A DNA stretch of 64,000 nt from Tetramitus jugosus. Its lineage: Eukaryota; Protista; Heterolobosea. The notes beneath the pieces are model-generated. The model saw only the letters and a program-made list of their open reading frames with translations, made no database searches and was not told the origin of the DNA. The translations under genes and the position numbers were made by a program. Positions 49,829 to 64,000 of the stretch are shown here, piece after piece (the stretch's first letter is position 1; every line of letters starts with the position of its first letter). Location of the stretch: positions 548,712 through 612,711 of the forward strand of contig OW569352.1 in assembly GCA_937625935.1 (NCBI GenBank). Reading direction: 5' to 3'.

Positions 49829-50311
49829 TCAAATGCCATCGTCATCATCAGTACCCCAGAGAGCTTTTTGTTCCTCCTCGTTTGCTAAATAATGCTCTCC
49901 CAACACTTGATCCAGTGTTCTGTAAGTAATCTGATCCGATATTCTCTCTTTCCTCTCCTTTTTCTCTTTCAGAGCCTGTCTCGCCTGAGTTAGTCGAAGT
50001 CGTCTTTGCTCTGCAAAAAGTTGCTCAATAGATTTTTCCTGTTCTTGATGTGTATTCACTACTACATTGTCAAAATTTAGTACTTTCTGAATAGCGGAGG
50101 GTTGCACTATGGTTGAGACTTCCTCTTGAAACTTGTCTGAATCTGTATAGAATGCACTCAAATCAGCATCGTTTACTTGTTTGGTCATGCGAACAGATGG
50201 TCGGCTTGGTGTGTCATCGTGCTTTGATTTGAGGTTTCGTCGCGATGGTGTTGCAAGTAGATTCTGTGCTATGTGGGTTCTCATCATTTGTTTATTTCCA
50301 AACAAGAACAA
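49829..50311 (-). CDS. Hypothetical protein (start uncertain)
   Basis: 160-codon ORF with a charged C-terminal helix; non-ATG start in the ORF track. Confidence 0.45.
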   Translation of the reverse strand: MFLFGNKQMMRTHIAQNLLATPSRRNLKSKHDDTPSRPSVRMTKQVNDADLSAFYTDSDKFQEEVSTIVQPSAIQKVLNFDNVVVNTHQEQEKSIEQLFAEQRRLRLTQARQALKEKKERKERISDQITYRTLDQVLGEHYLANEEEQKALWGTDDDDGI

Positions 50312-50565
50312 TATGTCTGCGGAATCGTTTTCTTGAATTTTGCAACATATTGTGGTTGCTTCGTCTGTTGTTTATTCATGGGAAGATGAGACCACTACAA
50401 CCATCACTGAGGCCCAAGACCTTGATTTGGTGAGCTCATTCTTATTCTACTTATTCTTCTTATTCTCTCAAATTTTGACTGGAGACTCTCTCGTCGGAAG
50501 TGAACACAACAGAAGGATTTATAAAAACGAACATTCCAGGAAAAAAGAGATCTATCAACGTTTCT

Positions 50566-51135
50566 TTAATCAGAGGTTTGAGGGACATTCAGTTGGGCAG
50601 TATCTGTCTCTGGTTCTTGTTGCAATGCTGGGCTCCATACCACTCCTTCGGTCTCTGTGTTAATTGCTTCTTTCATTCTATTCTCATAAGTAGCAGCTCC
50701 TCTTTTCTGTTTTATAATAAACCATACGAGAGCCATCAAACAACCGAAACTAACGAAGCAAACTGAACCGCTGGTCGCAAAAATAGTAGCCAACATAGTT
50801 TTGTTTCCATCCGGAGCCAAAACCTCTATGAAAGAAGTACCGACACCTCTTGAAGAGCTAATCACTTGAACAAGTAACTTACTGGTCACAAATTTTCTTC
50901 CAAAGTTTGGAACATTTGTAAGAATTGTCTTTGAATCAACAACTGTAAAAGTATTTGTTGAAAGTGATCCGATTGTGACACTGGTGACATCTACAAAGTT
51001 ATTCCCTCGGATTTCAATCTGGGTACTGAAATCAGCTGAAGATGGTATGATATGTGTCACACTGGCATCAATGTTGTACATTATCTGTCCCTCCAAGTAA
51101 TGGATAGTTGCTGATGAGCCATCTGCACTGCACAC
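50566..51135 (-). pseudogene. C-terminal fragment of a surface protein with IPT/TIG domain and TM anchor
   Basis: VTHIIPSS..IEIRGNNF..VTIG..ILTNVP IPT/TIG pattern plus a TM helix. There is no proper start and the upstream frame is broken. Confidence 0.55.
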
Positions 51136-51449
51136 ACTGATATGGATCCTGATTGTATAAGTTTGTGGTATTGTTGCCGGACAACTAATTTATCCGCTTT
51201 TCTGAAAGAGGACTAGTCCAAAACAGAGATAAGAATTTCCGTCTGGAGAGTTAGGGAGGTCAGCAGCCATTATCGGAAGGAAACGATTGAAAAACAAGTT
51301 ATTTCAATTGTTCAAAACAATTCACTAACATCTGAACTCCCTATATTCAGACCATATGGAATGCCAAAATATGACTTCCTCAAAATTCCATTCTTCATGA
51401 TCGCAGACCAACCCGAAGCCAAAATAAAAAAAATCTGGCATGCCTAACA

Positions 51450-52100
51450 GTAAAACTTGGGTTTTGAAGTTCACCATCATTTTAAGATAATCCAGTCGTA
51501 CGAATACCAAGAAAGTCACACCTGGAACTGTTCCAATATATCCTGGGAATTTCAATGATGAAAGCCGATGAGATGGCACGCATCGTAAAGAATAGACCAA
51601 TCACAGGTATGAATGGGTTATGAAGAGACAAATCGGAGTGCATAATTACCTTTTTCTTGGGTTTGAGCAACAATGAATAAACGGCGGAACGACGGTGAAA
51701 AAATCAATCCAAAAACATCAAGGTAAGACATTCTATTGGTACTGTATTTTAGCATACTGACTGGGGAGTTACAACAAACATAACGGATTCCCCAACCTAA
51801 GGAAATGATTTCCTTCGATGGAGATTTTTTTTGAGAGTCTTTATTGCTTTGGAAGCTCCAGCAAAATGAGGCACAGAGTAAAATTCTGTGAGACAGTGAA
51901 ATAGTGATTATTCCAATTTGAATCGTGTTTAGAGGCGAAACACCAGACCCAATCCATCAGAAATCCAGAGTAGCGCTTTTTCTGAATGACAATTCAGTTT
52001 TACGAATGGACTGAAATCCTTGGGAACTCTAGGAACCTTTATGCACTCTTGAGAAGGTTTTCACTCAGTGGTTGGTTGAATTTTACGATATATCAACTAC
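51450..52100 (-). pseudogene. Possible highly decayed tyrosine recombinase remnant
   Basis: Frameshifted fragments KRYSGF, HYFTVSQNF and FFTMRAISSAFI fall in the same order as GRHVGW, HLYLVAQNV and RYTMRSLRSGHI in the intact YR. By-eye match only. Confidence 0.3.
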
Positions 52101-53635
52101 ATCAACTCTTCTTCTGTCAATGAATCGTAACGATATATACAGATATCATTCAATTTTCTATTTGCTGAATTGGATTCGAATATGGTTATAGGATCCATTG
52201 ATTGACCATCATTCGATTCCAGTTATCCTAGATCTACAACAGGTTGTATCACAGTTCCAGCTGCTTCACTGTCCTCTTGTTCATTCTGCAAAGCATTTTT
52301 GCTCGAGAAATGCTGGGTGATCTATCGATCATAGAGTTTCACCTTCCAGTTGACAAAGTTAATGTATCACCTCGAGAATGAAGACCAGAAGAACATAGCT
52401 CATTGAACAAGAATATATTGCATGATGGTCAATCAATGGATGAAACAAGACACATGGCTATTCTGAACAACAAAGGATCCATTCACCTGGACCTAATACT
52501 GCGAGTGGTAATTGTTATATTGTGAGAGATAATGAGCACGAAGATCAGGCAACAATTGTTCAAATTCTATTGAAGAAGAACAAGCGATACTTGATCTGTA
52601 ATTGTGAGGAAAAAAATGTCTGGTCTGTTTGGGAATTCTATGATTTTTGGGCTATGCAGATTGATATTTGAGTCGATTATCCATTCAGTTTACCAATTGG
52701 TAAAATCATTGAGTCTGCGAAAACAAAAAACACAAGAAGAGGGAAGAAGAAGAATCGGGAGAGGCGTAAGGATAGAAAAGATACTAAGTATCATGATAAG
52801 CGTCAATCTAAGATAGATTTCATGGACAAAGTAGATCATGCGTGTGAAGATGATGTGGAGCTGATGGAGATGATTCTGAATCTGATTCTGGTAATTCTGA
52901 TTCTGATGATGAGAGTGATACTGATATGGATAATGATTTCAACAAAGGAGATTGTCATCATCTAGAACGTCTACTCACAAGAGTCAATGTGCACCATCTA
53001 CTAGTTCAAATTCTGCTACAGTGAAAAAATCAAACAGGAAGAATTTGATCAGCAATGATGGATCTAAGGTTCAATCTGAGAGCAATAATGATTAGTGAAG
53101 ATAAGGGATAGCTCTCTTCATATCTGATTTCAATCTTTCTTTGAGTACACCATACTGGCTCTCTATTTGGGTTTTCAAAGTGTCAACAAGGGTTCTTGAC
53201 TAACTGAACAGTAGATCTTCATTGACAACTAGTTCGACCAGAGCTTGAGAATCCGAGATATGATTGCATTCTGTAGGCTCCTTTGTGGATCTCTTGGATT
53301 AACAATCCCATGCAGTCTTTCTAGATGAACAATCAAGCGATTGGTACTACCATTACCTTTATTCATAGATAATACCAGGATTGACAGTCTTGGATTTTAC
53401 ATCGAACATAGTATCTTTCGTTTTCTTGCACTCTCCATATGTTCCCAGACGAAACTTCAGTTTAATTTTCTTTCTGGCTTTATTCGTGAGTGAGATGTTG
53501 TTGTTAGTTGTGATATATTTACGTGCAACACAGGTATTCGGGCTGGACGCAAATCTAGTGCGGTTCCTAAACATGAGCACTCTACACAACTTTATTATTT
53601 ATACTAAAAGTCAACTGCCCTGCACAAAAGTTTTG

Positions 53636-53765
53636 AACCTCGGAAGGTTGCAATTGCCATTGGGCCAATTAAATGGTCCTTAGGACCATTTCAATTGGCC
53701 GTTGGTGAATTGCCATTGCAGTTGAAGCCGTACCCCGTACGGTTATCCACTACACTCCTCGTGGT
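53636..53765 (-). other. Cluster of hairpins immediately 3' of the Penelope-like ORF
   Basis: GGCCAATT-AAATGGTCCT-T-AGGACCATTT-C-AATTGGCC long stem, plus AACCT-CGGA-AGGTT, CCGTAC-CCC-GTACGG and CCAC..GTGG stems. Confidence 0.7.
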
Positions 53766-55480
53766 TCAGTACTTGTAGTCCATGCTGTCAAGTTTGCGTT
53801 TCTTGATGCGGGGTGCACTCTGCATTAATGTGCAACCTGTTGTATCTCTCACTCTCTTAGATACAACAGTTGTATTCACATTGCAGGAGTCCCATGTGGA
53901 CTGTGAAGGAGTTGCTTTCTGTCTTTTAGCCATTGCGGCTTCGACAGCCTCCTTTTCCCTCAAATACCTCTTGTTCTGGGTCTTGGGTGGGTTTGGGCGC
54001 GGGCGCGTTGCTGACTTCCCCTTTCCGAAAATGATCGGATCAGTCGTTGTGCAGCAAATGAAGTACGCTGCCAACGACGTTTGTGATTACCAACAACAAC
54101 GTCCATTAGTTTCCTAGCTTCTTTTTATCTTCGTTTGGCATTGGATCACATTGTTGCACCCAAGTGTTGAATTTGGTTTTGCATGTGTGCAGCACTTCTC
54201 TGATGTTGGGAAGTATGACATTTGCAAATGACCAATTCCTTTGGCAAATCAATCTCATTGAAGAGAGAAATGGCATTGATCAATTGTCGATAATTGATGC
54301 CACTGCCAGAGTGAAACACTTTCCAAATTGGTGGAATGTTTGGTTTGTGTTGCAAGTCCAACTTTTGTTGGTACTTGTTCACTCTAGCTTGCCAGTCAAT
54401 AGGTTTGCAGTATCGTTCAACGAGTGCAAAGTAATTGTTCTTTGTGAACATTCGTTGTATGAAGTGGTGGTCATGTCCTCTTCTTAGACGAGAGGTAAAC
54501 AATGTTCGCATTGAATCAAATTGTTTGAAATGATCAACAAGGCGAGCGTATCTCACCCGTGATAAAACCTTTCCTTGCTGCAAAGGAAGACGCTGATTTG
54601 TACATGGAGTACATGTACTTGTTCAATGGTTTCTGGTAAACATTGAAGCAAAAGCGCCGTAATGGAACTGCCTAGTTCACGTAGTATTTTTCCAATTGGA
54701 TGTGCAAATCCAGGAAAACATTGCGATCTGCTTTGCAGAGTTTTAGATCCGAACCATTGTATGTTAACAATAGTAGGTATGCACTCTTTTGTGCACGCAA
54801 TGAAGAGGTCGTCGATGTATCTCACAACAATGCAGTGAGATCTGTTGACCTTGATGAGGTGTTGCAACTCATATGCAAGTAACACAAGGTTGGCTAATTC
54901 CGGTGCACAGTTTGTGCCCATTGGAAGGCCAATTACTTGCTTGAAAATGGTATTGTTCAATTCCTCACATCTGATGTACGTGCAGGTTAGCACGAAGTGC
55001 AACAACAATTTCATTGCACCAATTTCTTGTGTTGTCCAAGTGTTTGGTTCTAGTTTTTGCATCATTTCAAAAATGTACTCCATGTTTGATTTGATGATGT
55101 CATGTCTCAAATTGGTGTACAATGCAGTGAAGTCATAGCTGTGGGTTTGTAGCTTTGGATGCACTCTAAATTCCCACGTTGCTCCGTTTTGTAAACACCA
55201 TCTGTTAAGGACCAGTTTCGCCTCATATGAGGATGAAACAATAGGCATTACTGGTAGTAACCCTTGGGAATGGATAATTCATTGATCTCCTCAATTTGGT
55301 TGTACGCAGGTGTTCACCCATAGTTGGAGTCTTGTCTGTATTCATTTGTTGTATGTAAAAATTTTTCAAAATGTGGTTGATTGTCATCAAAACAATTTTC
55401 ACCAGGGGCGGAAAAAATTATGGTTTACAATCTTTTATTGTCCGGTAGCCTCATTAATTTGTGCACAACCACCTGGTCGT
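53766..55480 (-). mobile_element. Decayed, 5'-truncated Penelope-like retroelement (PLE) reverse transcriptase; no endonuclease visible
   Basis: VVHK..R; SYDFTALYTNLRHD; FKQVIGLPMGTNCAPELANLVLLAYE; RYIDDLF; then in shifted frames VFLDLHI, YQKPLNKYMY, KGFITGE..RYARL and SRLRRGH (PLE thumb). Several frameshifts and stops. Confidence 0.88.
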
Positions 55481-56600
55481 TAGGGGTTAAGAATTTGGAA
55501 TGAACATTCTCCACAATCGAATGTAGACAAGATAGAGTGCTAAGTGACATTTGGGATGAGTGTTTGAACCAAATATTGACCTGAATGAATACCAACGCCT
55601 CCAAAAGAATCTCAGATCAGACAGACATACCATCATTCTTTTGATGAGTTGCAGAGGATCCGCAGATTCTTTCAATTCGAATCTCCTTTGAGGCTCTCTT
55701 GCTTGTTTGTTTCGATAATATTACTCAATACTGCACCGATTCTTACGATACTAACTACTACAACAATTCCTTTAAATCTGTTGTTTACAAGAAATACCGG
55801 AGAACTACCGAAGAAATTTGCGCTCCCTCACCCAGAAGTAATAGAGCGTTGGGTGTAACAACGATGCTCTTGGAGATGTTTCTGATGGAAGGAAGAAGGC
55901 ATCTTTAATTCAAGATAAGAGAGAAAGTGCTGAGAAAAATTGTGAGATGGATGCTGCTAGACAAAACGCGAATTCAGTTCAACATTTGGTTGAAACAGTG
56001 TTGAATTCGTGGTGTTGGGTGCTCCGCTATCTTGCGTTTTGTGAGACATTGACAAAGTTCAAATCCTCGTCAGTCTTTGAAACTCAGACATCACAGTAAA
56101 CCTTTCACTCTAGGAAGTTCAGAGAGGGGAAACAACGAAGGTTGTAGGACAATGTTCATGGACAACAAATTCAGGAGCATGTTCTCTAGCTGCAGTATGA
56201 GCTACTTGTGCAGTGTCTGCTTTCGAAAACAGGATTCATCAGAGGTTCAACTTTGAACTTATCATTGCCAAACTTTCTCAGAGTATTCTTGATATCAAGA
56301 GGGAATTCTTCAATAAAATGAAATGATGTTGAAATTCTTAAATAGACAGAGGTAATCTTTTAATCTTGAGATATAAGGCGGGACAGACTCAATGTCGATG
56401 AATCGGAAGATAATTCAGTTCCTCCCACTGAACAAGTAGACTCAGTAACTGATGGTCACTGTTCCCTTTCTGTTACACCTGTCGTTTCTAGAAAGGATAG
56501 GAGAAGACGACCTAGACCTCAGAGAACAGATCCAGTGAGTCCAGCCGGCACTTCTCCTCTCTCAAAACTAACGAGAAAAGAGTAGGATGCCGAAAATAAG
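55480..56600 (-). pseudogene. Decayed paralogue of the tyrosine recombinase at 60137
   Basis: Minus-strand LRKFGNDKFKVEPLMN (~56235-56282) versus IRKYGNSKFKVCPLLN, followed in colinear order by HTAARE/HVGWRG, VSQN/VAQN, EGAQ/EGAQ and RWYSFRSI/RYTMRSL. Confidence 0.65.
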
Positions 56601-56937
56601 TCTGGTTTGTTTGATTCCGTACCCAAGCAGCGAGCGGAGAATTAACCCGAAGGCGACAACTCTTTTCCCATTTTCTACTGCCTGCAGAGCAGATGGGTTC
56701 TCAATGGTCACATTCCAGTTATGTGGATCAAAACGCTGTTTTGTACGTATAATAATACAATGTATATAATACAATATTACTATTTCTTCTCGTCCGGATA
56801 TCGAACAAAGATGTGGTTTGTTTGTGAAAAAAATTTTTATGTCATTCAACCAAAAAACCACCAGACATTTTTATGTCAAGTCTCCCCTACACGTGTGAAA
56901 GATCTGTTAATAAAGTGTAATACAGTGGCATCCCGAT

Positions 56938-57009
56938 CGCAATCTGCCGGGATTCGAACCCGGGTCGCAGCGATGGCAACGCTGCATGATACCCCTACAC
57001 TACAGATGC
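56938..57009 (-). tRNA. trnG-GCC: tRNA-Gly(GCC) with an altered 3' acceptor strand (possible pseudogene or insertion-site remnant)
   Basis: GCATCTG TA GTGTAGGGGTATCAT G CAGCG TTGCCAT CGCTG CGAC CCGGG TTCGAAT CCCGG CAGAT(T)GC. Anticodon and T arms are perfect; there is an extra T in the acceptor 3' strand. Confidence 0.85.
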
Positions 57010-57699
57010 CCATATCACAGCTAGATCTTGCTTAAGAATTTTAGTAGTCCCAAAGAATTTATTGAATGGTTCAATTGCAGAAATATGTTGAATGGTGCGC
57101 AAGATGGATTTGATACGACGCACAAGATGTGGTGCTGGTGGGAGCCGGTAAGTCCAGTGTTGAGGAGATTACAAAATGGGCTGGACATTATGCGGACCTG
57201 AGACAATTCGGCGATATCAATAAAAAAGGACCTAGCTGAGGTATTACTGGGCATAACTCCGATGAACAATACCACAACGAGAAAGTACGTTCACCATACT
57301 CAAGATCCTATCTACCTCTCATCGAACGAAACATCATAACACAGAGAAGAAATTATTGAGGAAACTAACTAATACTTCAACCACATTATGAATCAATCAT
57401 CAAAATCTGGGATATCTCAGTAAACACATTATTAAGACCTCGACCAACAAAAGTACATTCTCCACAACAAAGTGAAATGACCCTCTTCCTTTGACCTCCA
57501 CCACACCTAAGGAGCACAACTCAAATCAACAAGGAGGATCTATTGTGAAATGAAGGACAATTGATTTTAGCTTAGCCTTGCTTCACATGATTACCAGAGA
57601 GATTAATATTACAAGATGAGCTAAAGCACGTGCGTAGAGTGATTCTTTTCAGTTTATTCCTTTTCAATTAGGTGAAATATTTGTTTAGGAGGTTGGTAC

Positions 57700-58700
57700 A
57701 GGGGCTATCAGGACTGGAGTCGAACCGTCCGGTTCCCTATTATCATAAACTTAATGGAGATTTGGAGGTTCAACGAAAAAGTCAGGTTCAGGGTCTACAG
57801 ACACAAATCAGACAGTAACGAAACAAACTCATCATCAAGTAGTAATGAACAAGAGATCCCCAAGTTTGCCGTCAAGAGTTTACAAGATTCTCAGCTTCTA
57901 TCCAAGATATGACGAAGATGTCCTTGTTCTTGTGACCTTAGTGCTTGATGAAGAAGAAGAATCTTTGAAACCTAGAGGGCATTACACAGCTTTCAAGAAG
58001 GCTTAAGGAAACCGCATCAGCATGGAAGGCATCAAGACTGAGGATCTCAATTTTGGTTGTTTCATGATTTTGCTCCACATTTGGATCAATGAGAAACGTC
58101 CAGATGATCAGCCTTTGAATATTGGAGTTCCTGAAAACTTAATCAAAGATGGAACTCGTTAGTTCGTCAAGTGTCAAACGACTCATTTTCAGGGTATCCT
58201 GGATAACTGGATAACATCAAGGAACGTCTCAGTGATTTGTTGATCGTATGCATACAATTATTTAAAAAATATATTTTTAGGGGAGATGGATGGGGTTACC
58301 GTTACACTTTACACTCTTTTAAAAGGATGAGTTTGTCTCTGACTCGGAAAACAAAGAATGTACAACCAATCACTAACATACCAACCCAGTGGATGGACAG
58401 TTTGCGAACAAGTGGATGACACAATTGAAAGATGTTGAACTCTACGCTAATGATGTAGATGGGGTAGTGATTTTATTGTATTTGCTATGTTATCCCCGGC
58501 TTCAAGCCGAGTAAAGACTAACGATCAACGCGTATTCGATGTTAAATCAAGGTGAGAGCAAGTCACGCTAAATGTCGCACATCTTTACTCATTTTTTACT
58601 TGTTCGAAATGATGAAGAAAACTATGATTCGGTTGTCACTCGTCTGCGGATCTTCAATCGATATGCCAAATTTGAGTGGATAGCAAATGACAGGAATAAA
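57700..58700 (+). pseudogene. Possible decayed YR-family remnant
   Basis: Fragments PKFAVKSL, RISMEGIKTEDLNF, CIQLFKKYIFRG and DSVVTRLRIF..WIAND are loosely colinear with the intact YR; DNA homology to 62536-62785. Confidence 0.3.
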
Positions 58701-59235
58701 GGTCGACAATCCTCAGAATTGCAAAAAAATACACGTATTTTTTGAATTTAATAGTCCAACTTCAAATTTCAGCCATCAGTACAATGAAAATATCTCCAAA
58801 AAACAAAACAAACTGGTCCTTTATGTCATTGCTGTGTAAACGACAATTTTTTTAAAATTGGATAATGTCGTAAAAATCTACGAAGGTCAAAAAAAATTCA
58901 ATGTCACATTTTTTCTTCTGTGCAAAATTAACATCCGTGTTGGTGAAGTCCTGGAGGTTTTTTTGTGCTTTTTTTGGGCTTTGTTGTTCTTTTTTAGTTC
59001 TTCCTTCATTGAGCTTTTTCTTGTGAAACTGACCACACCGGCGTGTTGCTCGTGGTCAGTTCGAGGTGCTGACCACCATTTATATAATTGTTTCCAATTT
59101 TTTATGGATGATGAACTTAACTTGGCACGTGTAACGAGTAGCTGCACAAATAAACAAAGTTTTTCCTTCCGGATCTCGGAGTTTTGATCAAAAACAAACG
59201 CAATCAAACCAAATCACAAGGTCATCAACTGCATC

Positions 59236-60131
59236 ATGTTTACAAGTACTGAAACTAACTCAATTTCTTTTATTGTTTCTAGTGATATTAGAGAGAAGTT
59301 ACCAACAACTGGTAATAAACTTGTTATCATCTCCAAAGTTGGTAACAACTTCTTCATCGGTGAAGATAAAGAAGGAGTGAAGGAGGTGAGTAAGGAGATT
59401 GAAGACTTGAAGCAAAAATTGGAGGAAGAGAAAACTTCCAATAGTGACCTTACAAGCCAACTAAGAGATGCTTTATTGAATCTCAACAACAAAAAGCAAG
59501 AGATTGAGAAGCTCTCTGAACTGTGAAGAATTGGAGATTGAAATTCCACCAACTGAGTCTGCAAAGAAGGCTTTGAATTGGCTGGAGAAATCTCTGGTCA
59601 TTGTGGAGACTGAGGAAAGGCCTCCCAATTCTCAAGAAACGGTTGGTCAAATGGCCAAAATGAGTGACCATGAGTTTGAACGACTCCGAAAACACGTGTC
59701 CATCGTTGCGTGTATGAGATATGCGATTCGGAAGAGGGAGACCGGAGAGGAGGGAACTGAAGAGTTTCCTAAGATAGATCCGAGTCGGAGAGTTCTTGGT
59801 CCATTTAACCCTTGTCTTCAATGAGAGAAGTTCAAATTTGGAGACTACTTCCATTATGAGAAGTCCAAAATTGAGGGTAGAATCTATGACCGCTTTAGAA
59901 GCCTTCCCCTATTGGGTCATGTCCCAACATAGTCCTTCTACAATTGATGATAACATCAAGAAGGAATTGTTGTCTCAGGATAGAATGCCTTCCAGAATTA
60001 GACAACTCCTTATTAAGCTGAGAGAAAATGGAGACGATAGTGCCACGTCACCTTCCACCTCTACCTCTGGTGGTTCCAAGAGACGAAGCTCGTCCAGCGG
60101 TCCCAAAAAAAAAAAGAGTAAAACCAACTAA
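59236..60131 (+). pseudogene. Frameshifted coiled-coil ORF upstream of, or N-terminal to, the YR
   Basis: Three overlapping ORFs (59236-59526, 59504-59824, 59796-60131) read as one protein with single-base indels; ACTAAC..TTCTAG splice acceptor at ~59254-59282; NLS-like PKKKKSK. Confidence 0.55.
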
Positions 60132-60136
60132 TCTCA

Positions 60137-62407
60137 ATGACAATAGAAGAAGAGTACTCCAATCAGTTGGAAAGAATAAAAAAGTCTCCTTCTCATCCTT
60201 TTGTTTCTAATGGTCTAATCATTGTTGAAGACTCTTTCGAAACGCAAGAGGTTGATGGTCCAACGATGGAAGACATTGACAAGGAGCTTTCAATGTTGGC
60301 GGGAAAAACAGGAATAAAGAAGGTGACTGATGACCTATCGGTTAATCCTATCAAGAGAATGGAGAAAACAGACCGAGGGGAAGATTTTTGCCGTCAAGTG
60401 ACCGTCAGCATCGATGAGAACCAATCAATTGAGGATCAAATGATTCAATTGATGAATCTATTAGAGTTATCCAAAGCTCCTGGTACAAAACTGGTTCAAG
60501 CCTATGCCTGGAGGAGTTGGATTAGCTGGCTAAAGGAACAAGAAAACAATCACTCAGAGTTGACAACAGTTGACCCATACAACCCAAACAAGTTTGTAGT
60601 TGGGTTATATCTCTTGCATATGCGAGTGATACACAAGTACAGTCATAGTACGGTTGTCAACTGTTTCTGGAATCAACTTTGTTCGGTTTTGAAGGAAGAA
60701 AGAGCAATCGACTTGAAGAATGAGATGAAGGATTTTATCCATAAACTCTTCCGAGCTTTGATACGAAAGTACGGTAACTCTAAGTTTAAAGTGTGCCCAT
60801 TGCTCAACAATGATTTAGAAAAATGGCAGAAAAAATTGCACAAGAGAGACAACAGAGAACCACAAATTAAGTTGAGAGCTCTCATAATGTTTGGTAGACA
60901 TGTTGGGTGGAGAGGAGACACTCTTTCCTATATGAAATTGAGACACATCACCTTTTCAAGTTTGAAGAACGATGAACATCTGTATTTAGTTGCCCAAAAT
61001 GTGGGATACAAGAACAAAGGTGTTGGAGGACATGAGTTGAGAAATACTGTATACGGCAGTAGTGACTTGAATCGATGTCCAGTGTTTGCACTTCTTTGGT
61101 ACCTCTTTCACATCAGGAAGGTTTTTGTTTCACCAACGTTAGAGGAAGTGATCAATTCAGGTGATTATAGATTAGTTGAAGGAGCCCAAGACGAATTTTT
61201 GTTCACCCAATCGACTAGTGAACAACCAATGACATCCAAAGATATGTCAAACTTGATGAAAAAAAGTTCTGCAGAGGAATTGAAATGCAGATACACTATG
61301 AGATCATTGCGAAGTGGTCATATCTGTCAAGCACTCCTAACTAGCATCTTGAGATACGGTATCATTAAGGACAGTGTAAGACAGGCAATCAAGAGGCATG
61401 TGGGTTGGAACTCAGATGAATCAATCGACGCGTATGAACGAATGTCAATATTCTGTTCTCAAAATGTCGCCAACCTACAAGATCTTCAGCAACACACAGA
61501 TGCACAAGAACTGGTCAAATATTTCTGGAAAATGGATCAACCACAACCAAACAGTCTCACACCAATCAGAACCACAATGAGGCAAGTGCGAAGATCCTCG
61601 GTGCATCCTAAGAAGTCTCCATCATCAGTTACAAAGTATGTCTCATTCAGAAGTGTCAAGAAGAGAATTTTAGCACTGAGACCAAACTTGAAAAAGGTTT
61701 GCGAAGAAGAGGATTTATCAACAACAGGTAAGAAACATCAAACAACATGGATGACTTATCATCAAAAGTACATCAGGAAATGGTGTGAAAGTGCGGACGA
61801 ATGCAGAGAAATCTTGAATCAAAATAAGGAATATCTTTATGGTAGTTCTGATCAGAAGTCATCTGTACTTCTAAATGTTGGGAAGAAAATGTTCATCAAA
61901 CTGGCTGTTGGCTCTCAACAAGATGAATATATCAAGAAGGTATTTTATGAAGACTATAGAAGGAAAGACAAACAAAATGATAGAGAAGAACCCAATAGCC
62001 CGGCAGCAAGTAGATTCCTTCCTAGAGGAGTGAAAAGAAAACTTAACTTTGTCGCAGAGCCTGATGAACCAGAAGAGAACATACTTCAATATCCGCGCAT
62101 TCATATCCCATCGTTCAACAGACCAACCAATCCTATTTTCATGACTGAACTGCAAACTCAAGATTCACCCAAGCCAACAAGCAACGAACATGAGACCCAT
62201 GAGAGAAGCAATAATCAAGAAGATGAGATGGAATTGAATGAAGTCGAACGTCAACAACAACCAATGGATGATACAGATGACATACCTCAACAATTTCAGA
62301 ATGAGCAAGCACCAACCTCCTTCGATGATTACATTAGCGAGCGAGAGTACTTGGGTTGGGTTTGGGTTTGGGTCTGTCTTGTTGTTAAGGAAAACCCGAG
62401 AATTTAG
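60137..62407 (+). mobile_element. Tyrosine recombinase (Crypton/DIRS-type YR) ORF, 756 aa, uninterrupted
   Basis: SAM-like core-binding region (APGTKLVQAYAWRSWISWL; YSHSTV); catalytic R (GRHVGWRGD); K (YKNK); RCPVFALLWYL; xSLRSG box (RSLRSGH); HVGW; Tyr (IDAYER). Confidence 0.88.
62351..62373 (+). repeat. Interstitial telomere-repeat tract inside the 3' end of the YR ORF
   Basis: TTGGGTTGGGTTTGGGTTTGGGT, translated as GWVWVWV; same orientation as the terminal array. Confidence 0.9.
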
Positions 62408-62929
62408 CTGTATTTGGTATCAGAGCGTTGAAATTTACAGTTTAGTGTAAAAACAAAATTTAGTTCGGTTGAGTTGTGGCTTATAGGTTGAGGGAGTAAA
62501 AAGAAGACATATAGGACAAGGGTTGAATGGATTTTGGAGTCTATTATCAGATCGGAGATATTGAGGTTCAACGAACAGGGAGGTTCACGGTCCAGGACCG
62601 TGAAATGATTTCCTGTATTTCATCTCAGGTCATTTGTCAGTGGAGCTTTTTGGATCCAGCAAAGAATTTCGACCAATGAGCGAAGTGATTACAACGAATT
62701 CAGAAGGAATACAATACAGCAACATGAATATAACAGAAGACTTGTGAAGGAGTTCAACCTGAAATACAATGGCAGTCAATAGTTAACTATATTTTGTCTT
62801 GATCATGATCTGTGACTACTAATTACGATTTATAGATACGCCGCAACCTGATTTTTAAGTAGTTTGATTTGATGTCTTTCTGATCTATCTGTACTAAAGT
62901 GCAAGTGCTTCTGTTGAAAAGCAGATTTC

Positions 62930-63153
62930 GGTTGCATCGACCTCCAACCAGCATATAAACCCAAATCCCACCCTTTTTTACTTTTTGATTGTATATCTAC
63001 AGAATAGGTCGTAGGGGACTCTGTAGTCATTCAATGAATCTTCAATTGAATCTCTGTTGAATCGCGAACTAATTATGTCAAAAGTACATTTAGGGTTGAC
63101 TTCTCCTCCAACCAGTGTATAAACCCTTACCCAACCTTTTTTCTTTTTGACTG
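62930..63153 (-). repeat. Pair of ~60 bp degenerate direct repeats (~62930-62992, ~63094-63153), probably a coding remnant
   Basis: CCTCCAACCAG..ATAAACCC..CCTTTTTT.CTTTTTGA.TGT occurs twice. On the minus strand the copies read QSKSKKGWDLGLYAGWR versus QSKRKKGW..GLYTGWR, with third-position differences. Confidence 0.75.
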
Positions 63154-63227
63154 TTCAGGACTCAGAGCATTTCTACGTCAAAATTATCATATCTGTTCGT
63201 TATCTATTGGTTCTGAAGTTATTTACA

Positions 63228-64000
63228 TGGGTTTGGGTTTGGGTTTGGGTTTGGGTTTGGGTTTGGGTTTGGGTTTGGGTTTGGGTTTGGGTTTGGGTTT
63301 GGGTTTGGGTTTGGGTTTGGGTTTGGGTTTGGGTTTGGGTTTGGGTTTGGGTTTGGGTTTGGGTTTGGGTTTGGGTTTGGGTTTGGGTTTGGGTTTGGGT
63401 TTGGGTTTGGGTTTGGGTTTGGGTTTGGGTTTGGGTTTGGGTTTGGGTTTGGGTTTGGGTTTGGGTTTGGGTTTGGGTTTGGGTTTGGGTTTGGGTTTGG
63501 GTTTGGGTTTGGGTTTGGGTTTGGGTTTGGGTTTGGGTTTGGGTTTGGGTTTGGGTTTGGGTTTGGGTTTGGGTTTGGGTTTGGGTTTGGGTTTGGGTTT
63601 GGGTTTGGGTTTGGGTTTGGGTTTGGGTTTGGGTTTGGGTTTGGGTTTGGGTTTGGGTTTGGGTTTGGGTTTGGGTTTGGGTTTGGGTTTGGGTTTGGGT
63701 TTGGGTTTGGGTTTGGGTTTGGGTTTGGGTTTGGGTTTGGGTTTGGGTTTGGGTTTGGGTTTGGGTTTGGGTTTGGGTTTGGGTTTGGGTTTGGGTTTGG
63801 GTTTGGGTTTGGGTTTGGGTTTGGGTTTGGGTTTGGGTTTGGGTTTGGGTTTGGGTTTGGGTTTGGGTTTGGGTTTGGGTTTGGGTTTGGGTTTGGGTTT
63901 GGGTTTGGGTTTGGGTTTGGGTTTGGGTTTGGGGTTTGGGTTTGGGTTTGGGTTTGGGTTTGGGTTTGGGTTTGGGTTTGGGGGTTGGGTTTGGGTTTGG
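63228..64000 (+). repeat. Telomere (TTTGGG)n
   Basis: About 770 bp of near-perfect TTTGGG hexamers running to the window end, with the G-rich strand 5'->3' toward the end. Confidence 0.98.

Follow-up and report, generated by a model that had tools for sequence, protein, structure and literature searches.

A probably Crypton-like tyrosine recombinase family, apparently undescribed, at a chromosome end of the heterolobosean Tetramitus jugosus

Cryptons are tyrosine recombinase (YR) elements with 4-6-bp terminal direct repeats, for which a circular intermediate has been proposed, and the sites recognized by YRs consist of 11-13-bp inverted repeats around a 6-8-bp spacer (Kojima and Jurka, PMC3212892). 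Elements with a YR have also been described at telomeres: TATE, a YR retrotransposon, occupies a fixed position in the telomere hexamer in Leishmania (PMC6681497), and several nimaviruses, which have a common YR family, insert into telomere repeats (PMC10871703). Here, we describe a YR element from the last kilobases of a 64,000-nucleotide stretch of the heterolobosean Tetramitus jugosus (contig OW569352.1, positions 548,712 to 612,711; the whole stretch is hereafter called the window). The original prediction, made from the sequence alone, had proposed that this subtelomere is built from repeated copies of one YR DNA-element family, and had named only retroelements as known telomere-targeting elements. 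The latter statement does not hold in view of the published accounts of TATE (a retrotransposon; PMC6681497) and of the nimaviruses (DNA viruses; PMC10871703); the presence of a YR at telomeres is thus nothing new in itself.

The chromosome end contains one nearly whole YR copy together with one or two decayed copies. The YR family, which is common to Naegleria and Willaertia, is real and apparently undescribed. We consider it probable, with some reserve, that this family is a Crypton-like DNA transposon that moves as a circle. Chromosome ends are probably where its copies are kept, multiplied and trimmed; the telomere repeat itself would not be its target. That the family is multicopy, with copies of different ages that lie repeatedly against telomere repeats, is supported by the present analysis. 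No description of this heterolobosean YR family was found in the literature covered; most subscription papers, supplements and Repbase, which lay outside this coverage, may list it. The element and the telomere comprise the following features (ORF, open reading frame; aa, amino acids):

60137..62407, plus strand: YR ORF, 756 aa, whose native sequence stops at about 62350 (conservation, model)
62351..62372, plus strand: internal telomere-repeat tract of 22 bases at the 3' end of the YR ORF, reading GWVWVW (sequence)
59117..59136, plus strand: left end of the element, with a TTAA core (59117-59120) and a 16-bp arm (59121-59136); predicted recombinase crossover site
59236..60131, plus strand: putative ORF1 of about 290 aa, coiled-coil-like with a basic C-terminus, broken by frameshifts and a stop (three-frame translation)
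63228..64000, plus strand: terminal telomere array (TGGGTT)n, 128.5 copies (sequence)

The terminal array was confirmed as a telomere that starts at 63228; TTTGGG is a candidate telomere repeat in Naegleria gruberi (PMC3622300).

Sequence searches with the 756-aa protein gave no significant match in Pfam, NCBIfam, PHROGs or PDB sequences. No Pfam family reached its cut-off, the searches of solved-structure sequences returned nothing useful, and those of NCBIfam and PHROGs returned none or one weak integrase match. Judged by its alignment and its predicted structure, the ORF is a tyrosine recombinase. The catalytic residues are R259, K292, R389 (at the His position), R392, W424 and Y433, with the box R389-S-L-R392. 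All six columns hardly vary in a 47-row alignment; counting the rows with a residue at each column, R259 is present in 36/37, K292 in 37/38, R392 in 35/36 and Y433 in 30/31; the column of residue 389, the first His of the motif, holds Arg in 35/38 rows and His in 2/38. A structure model built on 32 sequences reached a mean predicted local distance difference test (pLDDT) score of 69, with most of the core above 85, and a model from 6 sequences (pLDDT 41) was unusable. The predicted model has the core-binding and catalytic domain folds of a YR element and is Cre-like: Cre was its best structural match (Foldseek E 2.9e-7; Z 21.0, root mean square deviation 5.5, 287 aligned residues), over YR residues 62-452. 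Ndc10, Flp and protelomerase were absent among the 50 structural matches listed, which excludes nothing.

Five close homologues, 54-61% identical overall, were found, and a profile of these retrieved 66 representatives (E 0.001 or better), some of them full-length and 17-27% identical. Species names are attached to 7 of the 20 relatives checked, from Naegleria and Willaertia, and all of these are annotated as hypothetical or predicted proteins. In addition, loose contig ends in X2 and X3 reveal several diverged YR paralogues. Among 32 aligned relatives, weak matches to Phage_integrase (5/32) were all below cut-off, no match to GCR1_C or DUF3504 was obtained, and DUF3435 was not one of the 12 Pfam families matched at E 0.05. 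Reverse transcriptase (RT) and DDE domains were found neither in these 32 proteins nor beside the window's YR, whose copy is cut at its 3' end. A C-terminal chromodomain (E 4.7e-10), possibly a chromatin-targeting module, is present in one relative, P0029 from N. gruberi. Another, the Willaertia-like copy P0038, has its C-terminus fused to an unrelated host-like sequence, which a gene-model fusion or domestication may explain.

Compared with the described Cryptons (CryptonF, S, A and I; PMC3212892), the family has in common the YR catalytic tetrad followed by a C-terminal extension, a short core at the boundary and a proposed circle, as well as weak similarity to the Crypton-derived NDC10_II in 2/32 relatives (P0017 and P0014; 2.6e-5 at best, below cut-off). 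It differs in the missing GCR1_C and DUF3504 matches, the Arg that replaces the first His, the extra upstream ORF, the 16-bp imperfect inverted arm and the repeated truncation by telomere repeats; moreover, the host table of that article contains no heterolobosean lineage. We call the family a Crypton-like variant, not placed in any named Crypton clade. It is also unlike Starship elements, as the YR is the second ORF, no cargo was seen and DUF3435 was unmatched.

The original prediction had called the window's YR intact; its ORF, its 756-aa length and its YR identity stand, whereas its intactness has to be qualified, as the last 18 codons are telomere tract plus the unit behind it and the upstream ORF is broken. 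The same GWVWVW peptide occurs in the homologues P0002 and P0003, and a telomere tract ends three of the eight close-clade proteins with a visible C-terminus (the window's YR, P0002 and P0003), at 44, 104 and 108 residues past a shared motif. Telomere-coded peptides are present in 3/78 family proteins (protein only, DNA not seen), and P0068 begins with such peptides, followed by a truncated YR. Similarly, an X1 contig joins position 60939 (codon 268) to a tract, and in an X6 paralogue telomere repeats appear just after 61673. The junction at 62351 is spanned by an X2 contig (61046-62379) that continues for 28 letters, just under the 31 letters of our bridging rule. We left low-depth X1 joints, such as 61601 to 62353 (depth about 50-60), out of the junction count. 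In X5, contigs cover the terminal unit but hardly any of the YR; as none of them links the two, we do not take the YR to be absent there. Of the proposal that the family inserts at, or is kept at, chromosome ends, insertion at the telomere repeat itself is not supported, in view of the non-telomeric left flank and the varied junctions inside the ORF.

In P0002, P0003 and P0068, the G-strand telomere peptide is followed by a short spacer and then by a C-strand-like peptide (protein only). This arrangement suggests head-to-head telomere junctions, which could stem from end fusion or from a capping element that brings a C-tract of its own. We dismissed the idea of a protelomerase-like hairpin at the tract, its fold being weak (-3.1 kcal/mol).

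The left end of the element was located by comparison of contigs: the sequence common to X2, X3 and X6 starts exactly at 59117, and both flanks seen to the left of this position are non-telomeric. X2 and X3 come from one sample, maybe the source of the window, and their agreement is not independent support; X1 represents another strain, since it departs from the window at single-copy sites at which X2 agrees with it. The alternative flank in X2 and X3 matches the reverse complement of the 16-bp arm at 11/16 positions (3/16 for the window's own flank), a score that 1.8e-4 of the window's 16-mers attain, and it completes a 16-bp imperfect inverted repeat around TTAA. We read the alternative flank as the right end of the element itself, connected with the left end in a circle or tandem junction; it may also be a preferred target site. 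The left boundary in the window carries the TTAA core, where Crypton termini have 4-6-bp direct repeats, and the right end is missing. Inverted arms around a short core, together with the best structural match, bring the system close to Cre/loxP-type sites, from which it differs in a protein identity of only 10-13%, in about 300 further C-terminal residues and in its nature as a eukaryotic multicopy element.

Between this left end and the YR, paralogous contigs vary by indels across the ORF1 region. ORF1 had no Pfam match, and no longer homologue was found for one 114-aa piece of it. An intron at its start was rejected, the paralogues being without donor and acceptor bases.

In the Crypton-like scheme, the recombinase would bind the two inverted arms, cross over in the TTAA (or GTTAAC) core and excise a circle, which would reinsert at AT-rich sites having the same core. 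In such a gene-dense genome, insertions would survive mostly in the gene-poor last kilobases, where end erosion or breakage would cut copies at random points and telomerase would heal them. The healed end would then receive a copy of a common terminal unit, either through recombination with another end or through the trans activity of a Penelope-like RT that lacks an endonuclease. There are few eukaryotic YR elements, and defining where they end is difficult. With a candidate crossover site that has inverted arms, the long-proposed model of a circular intermediate for Crypton-like elements can be put to the test, and a new Cre-like recombinase/site pair may be gained. More generally, repeated truncation by telomere tracts would be a readable record of end breakage, healing and capping in a little-studied lineage.

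Several points weigh against this scheme. Five of the eight close-clade proteins (P0001, P0004, P0005, P0007 and P0010) have a natural C-terminus, and the X1 joint at 60939 has only 21 letters on its shorter side. The alternative flank is a single 34-letter loose end from one sample (X2 = X3), and it could be a junction, either of a circle or of a tandem pair, or else a target site. The upstream ORF1 lies outside the basic Crypton plan, and the right end of the window's copy is missing; direct repeats at the termini, or an RT/RNase H ORF further downstream, could have been lost with it. Copies were placed at one chromosome end, and the named distant relatives sit on contigs of 29-591 kb. Finally, the comparison with Cryptons was made through descriptions and domain matches.

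The missing right end leads to one of the two best surviving alternatives, namely that the element is a YR retrotransposon of the TATE/VIPER type (gag-like ORF1, then YR, then RT/RNase H) from which end trimming has removed the third ORF. The order of ORF1 and YR fits the gag-YR-RT plan of TATE and VIPER, which are kinetoplastid elements, in which a domainless ORF precedes the YR, and TATE itself is telomere-associated (PMC6681497). The window's copy breaks off directly at the 3' end of the YR; within 50000-63230, which lacks the 3' part of the element, no long repeat pair was found. The hosts of TATE belong to another lineage of Discoba. We nonetheless judge this origin unlikely. The left end has the appearance of a DNA crossover site and not of a split direct repeat. 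The contigs of three uncut close homologues measure 4.0-4.4 kb, which leaves little room for a 2-kb RT ORF, with the proviso that contig ends may be breaks, and the one RT recognized in the region, of the Penelope-like kind, lies upstream on the opposite strand. TATE is described with a fixed hexamer position, an RT/RNase H and split direct repeats (PMC6681497), whereas here the flank is non-telomeric, the junctions vary and no such RT was seen.

A second alternative is that the element actively targets subtelomeric DNA or chromatin, or that breaks made by the recombinase are healed by telomerase, the family driving end turnover. Junctions with telomere tracts do recur across several paralogues and samples, two subfamilies are present within one 12-kb end, and the chromodomain of P0029 would suit such targeting. 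However, passive retention predicts the same pattern, the junction positions are scattered instead of falling at one site, and the window's YR has no Pfam match to a chromodomain; we regard this alternative as doubtful. Equally doubtful is its strongest form, in which a clade of DNA transposons specifically targets chromosome ends, its own recombinase cuts making the ends that telomerase heals and the terminal unit caps, and in this way drives telomere turnover. If targeting were true, a small DNA transposon would join the short list of telomere specialists.

It is very improbable that an endogenous virus (Polinton-like, virophage or giant virus) supplied the YR as its integrase and then lost its remaining genes. 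YRs do occur in such viruses, and viral YRs were among the Foldseek matches of the model, but these matched no better than Cre. No viral gene was recognized among the 92 stop-to-stop segments of the region, in which the sole meaningful Pfam E-value was that of RVT_1, and no related locus came from viral or metagenome contigs or from phage records. Nimaviruses likewise are DNA elements with a YR associated with telomere repeats, and differ in their large viral genomes and in having telomere repeats on both sides (PMC10871703). Least tenable, and largely refuted for this copy, is site-specific integration into the telomere hexamer as in TATE or the telomere-inserting nimaviruses: YR-mediated telomere insertion has precedent and a tract abuts the YR in 3/8 close-clade proteins, but neither flank left of 59117 is telomeric and the tract lies at differing codons among copies, inside the ORF, which together argue against hexamer targeting.

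Two decayed pieces were recognized with a frameshift-aware aligner written for the purpose, calibrated on shuffles and housekeeping windows and applied to 14, 12, 14 and 6 region-strand tests in four rounds:

56222..56344, minus strand: decayed YR piece A (N-terminal domain/linker), P0013 subfamily (tblastn, frameshift-aware scores)
52010..52521, minus strand: decayed YR piece B (R-S-x-R box, region of the catalytic Tyr and start of the C-terminal part), P0013 subfamily

Piece A is 71% identical to P0013 over 31 aa (tblastn, E 6.5e-7), and its frameshift-aware scores exceed those of all shuffles (0/40, 0/20 and 0/50 as high). Against the window's own YR, the 56 kb paralogue reached only E 0.018 in tblastn, and in hmmsearch a housekeeping stretch outscored it (9.8 vs 6.9 bits). 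From the decayed paralogue announced at 55480-56600 on the minus strand, 56344-56222 alone proved significant; one of the colinear downstream motifs was found (55579-55490), and it was weak (2/50 shuffles as high). Piece B, absent from the first list of remnants, is significant at 52521-52208 on the minus strand (E 1e-6 against the P0013/P0016/P0068 subfamily) and can be aligned to about 52010. Pieces A and B do not overlap on the protein, and hence piece B may be the distal half of piece A's copy, split by the intervening retroelement.

By sequence similarity, both pieces belong to another subfamily than the nearly whole YR. The P0013/P0016/P0068 subfamily is 23% identical to the latter and forms a separate clade in a 29-row tree, from which rows with <220 core residues were excluded. 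The idea of a subtelomere built from a single family is not supported: the decayed and nearly whole copies fall in separate, well-supported clades, and much of the region is occupied by other sequences, namely a Penelope-like RT relic, a tRNA and a terminal unit that is not YR-derived.

Three fainter remnants had also been proposed. Those at 51.45-52.1 kb on the minus strand (43/50 and 6/20 shuffles as high) and at 62.5-62.8 kb on the plus strand (18/50 and 18/20) found no support. The third, at 57.7-58.7 kb on the plus strand, is borderline: no shuffle scored as high (0/50, 0/20), but 3/98 housekeeping windows outscored it, and the two alignments that score best assign this DNA to differing parts of the protein. 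A motif picked by eye at 57.2 kb (38/50 and 12/20 shuffles as high) was rejected, as was an N-terminal remnant at 53595-53304, which beat 50 shuffles but was exceeded by 2/98 housekeeping windows and, in a second test, was matched or exceeded by 15/20 shuffles.

Inverted-repeat pairs at 55561-55997 (26 bp) and 52193-52441 (25 bp) lie inside the decayed pieces and are maybe small insertions or template-switch duplications. At 56885-56912 on the minus strand, just downstream of a tRNA-Gly gene, a pair of TTAAC and CACGTGTA resembles the left end of the nearly whole element (59117-59133) with a different spacing; it is possibly the left end of a decayed element, beside the tRNA gene.

The other features of the chromosome end are:

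62373..63227, no strand assigned: multicopy terminal unit, headed by the tract and cut by the telomere at 63228 (contig depth, joints)
51785..51975, plus strand: second multicopy unit, other copies of which are likewise attached to telomere tracts, with no YR support (X2 joints)
57537..58762, plus strand: 1.2-kb segment skipped by an X1 contig (joint 57536-58763), borderline YR-like
53769..55269, minus strand: Penelope-like RT relic, 5'-truncated and frameshifted, with its 5' end facing the telomere (RVT_1 E 1.8e-5)
56938..57010, minus strand: tRNA-Gly(GCC) (tRNA prediction)

The terminal unit (62352-63227) has no similarity to the YR. Its summed contig depth in X2 is about 20x the single-haplotype level, depth being a hint at copy number only. 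In other copies, it follows a different upstream sequence (joint 56682 to 62352, shorter side 44 letters) and runs past 63228. In X1 contigs, internal points of the unit (62440, 62571 and 63111) lead into the tract again, a pattern like that of a tandem array whose copies are cut at various places. Within the unit, a direct repeat of 49 bp (62930, 63094) has C-rich cores that resemble telomere repeats. The segment at 57537-58762 has a 55-bp motif in common with it (DNA alignment z 17 to 62541-62592). The second unit is defined by the X2 joints 62372-51785 and 51969-62343 and by raised depth at 51563-52071. One of its joins sits at a short match between unit and telomere repeat, a hint that the telomere overhang may have served as primer for copying, and another has an 8-base word in common with the YR/tract junction.

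The RT relic is 63% and 54% identical to P0079 and P0080, in which Pfam found no GIY-YIG domain; its homologues end in a conserved C-terminal extension. By its sequence, it resembles endonuclease-lacking Penelope-like elements. We take the Penelope label from motifs, not from a tree. That endonuclease-lacking group is described as restricted to chromosome termini, and the description does not mention Heterolobosea (PMC8557442). As in its members Athena and Coprina, the homologues are without GIY-YIG and the 5' end points towards the telomere, and the short telomere tract at the inner end of the terminal unit is possibly a further likeness (PMC8557442). Unlike in Athena and Coprina, no hammerhead ribozyme was found by Rfam or pattern search, the relic being decayed, and the terminal unit has no similarity to the relic. 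A G-rich stretch at 53983, considered as a telomere remnant, is coding sequence of the relic and common to P0079.

Upstream of this region, positions 1-50 kb form a gene-dense, intron-poor chromosome arm, with 23 ORFs of at least 200 aa (19 of them scanned) and genes filling the stretch; as originally predicted, no significant YR match lies there. Finally, a near-perfect palindrome occupies 53657-53705, just past the end of the RT relic ORF.

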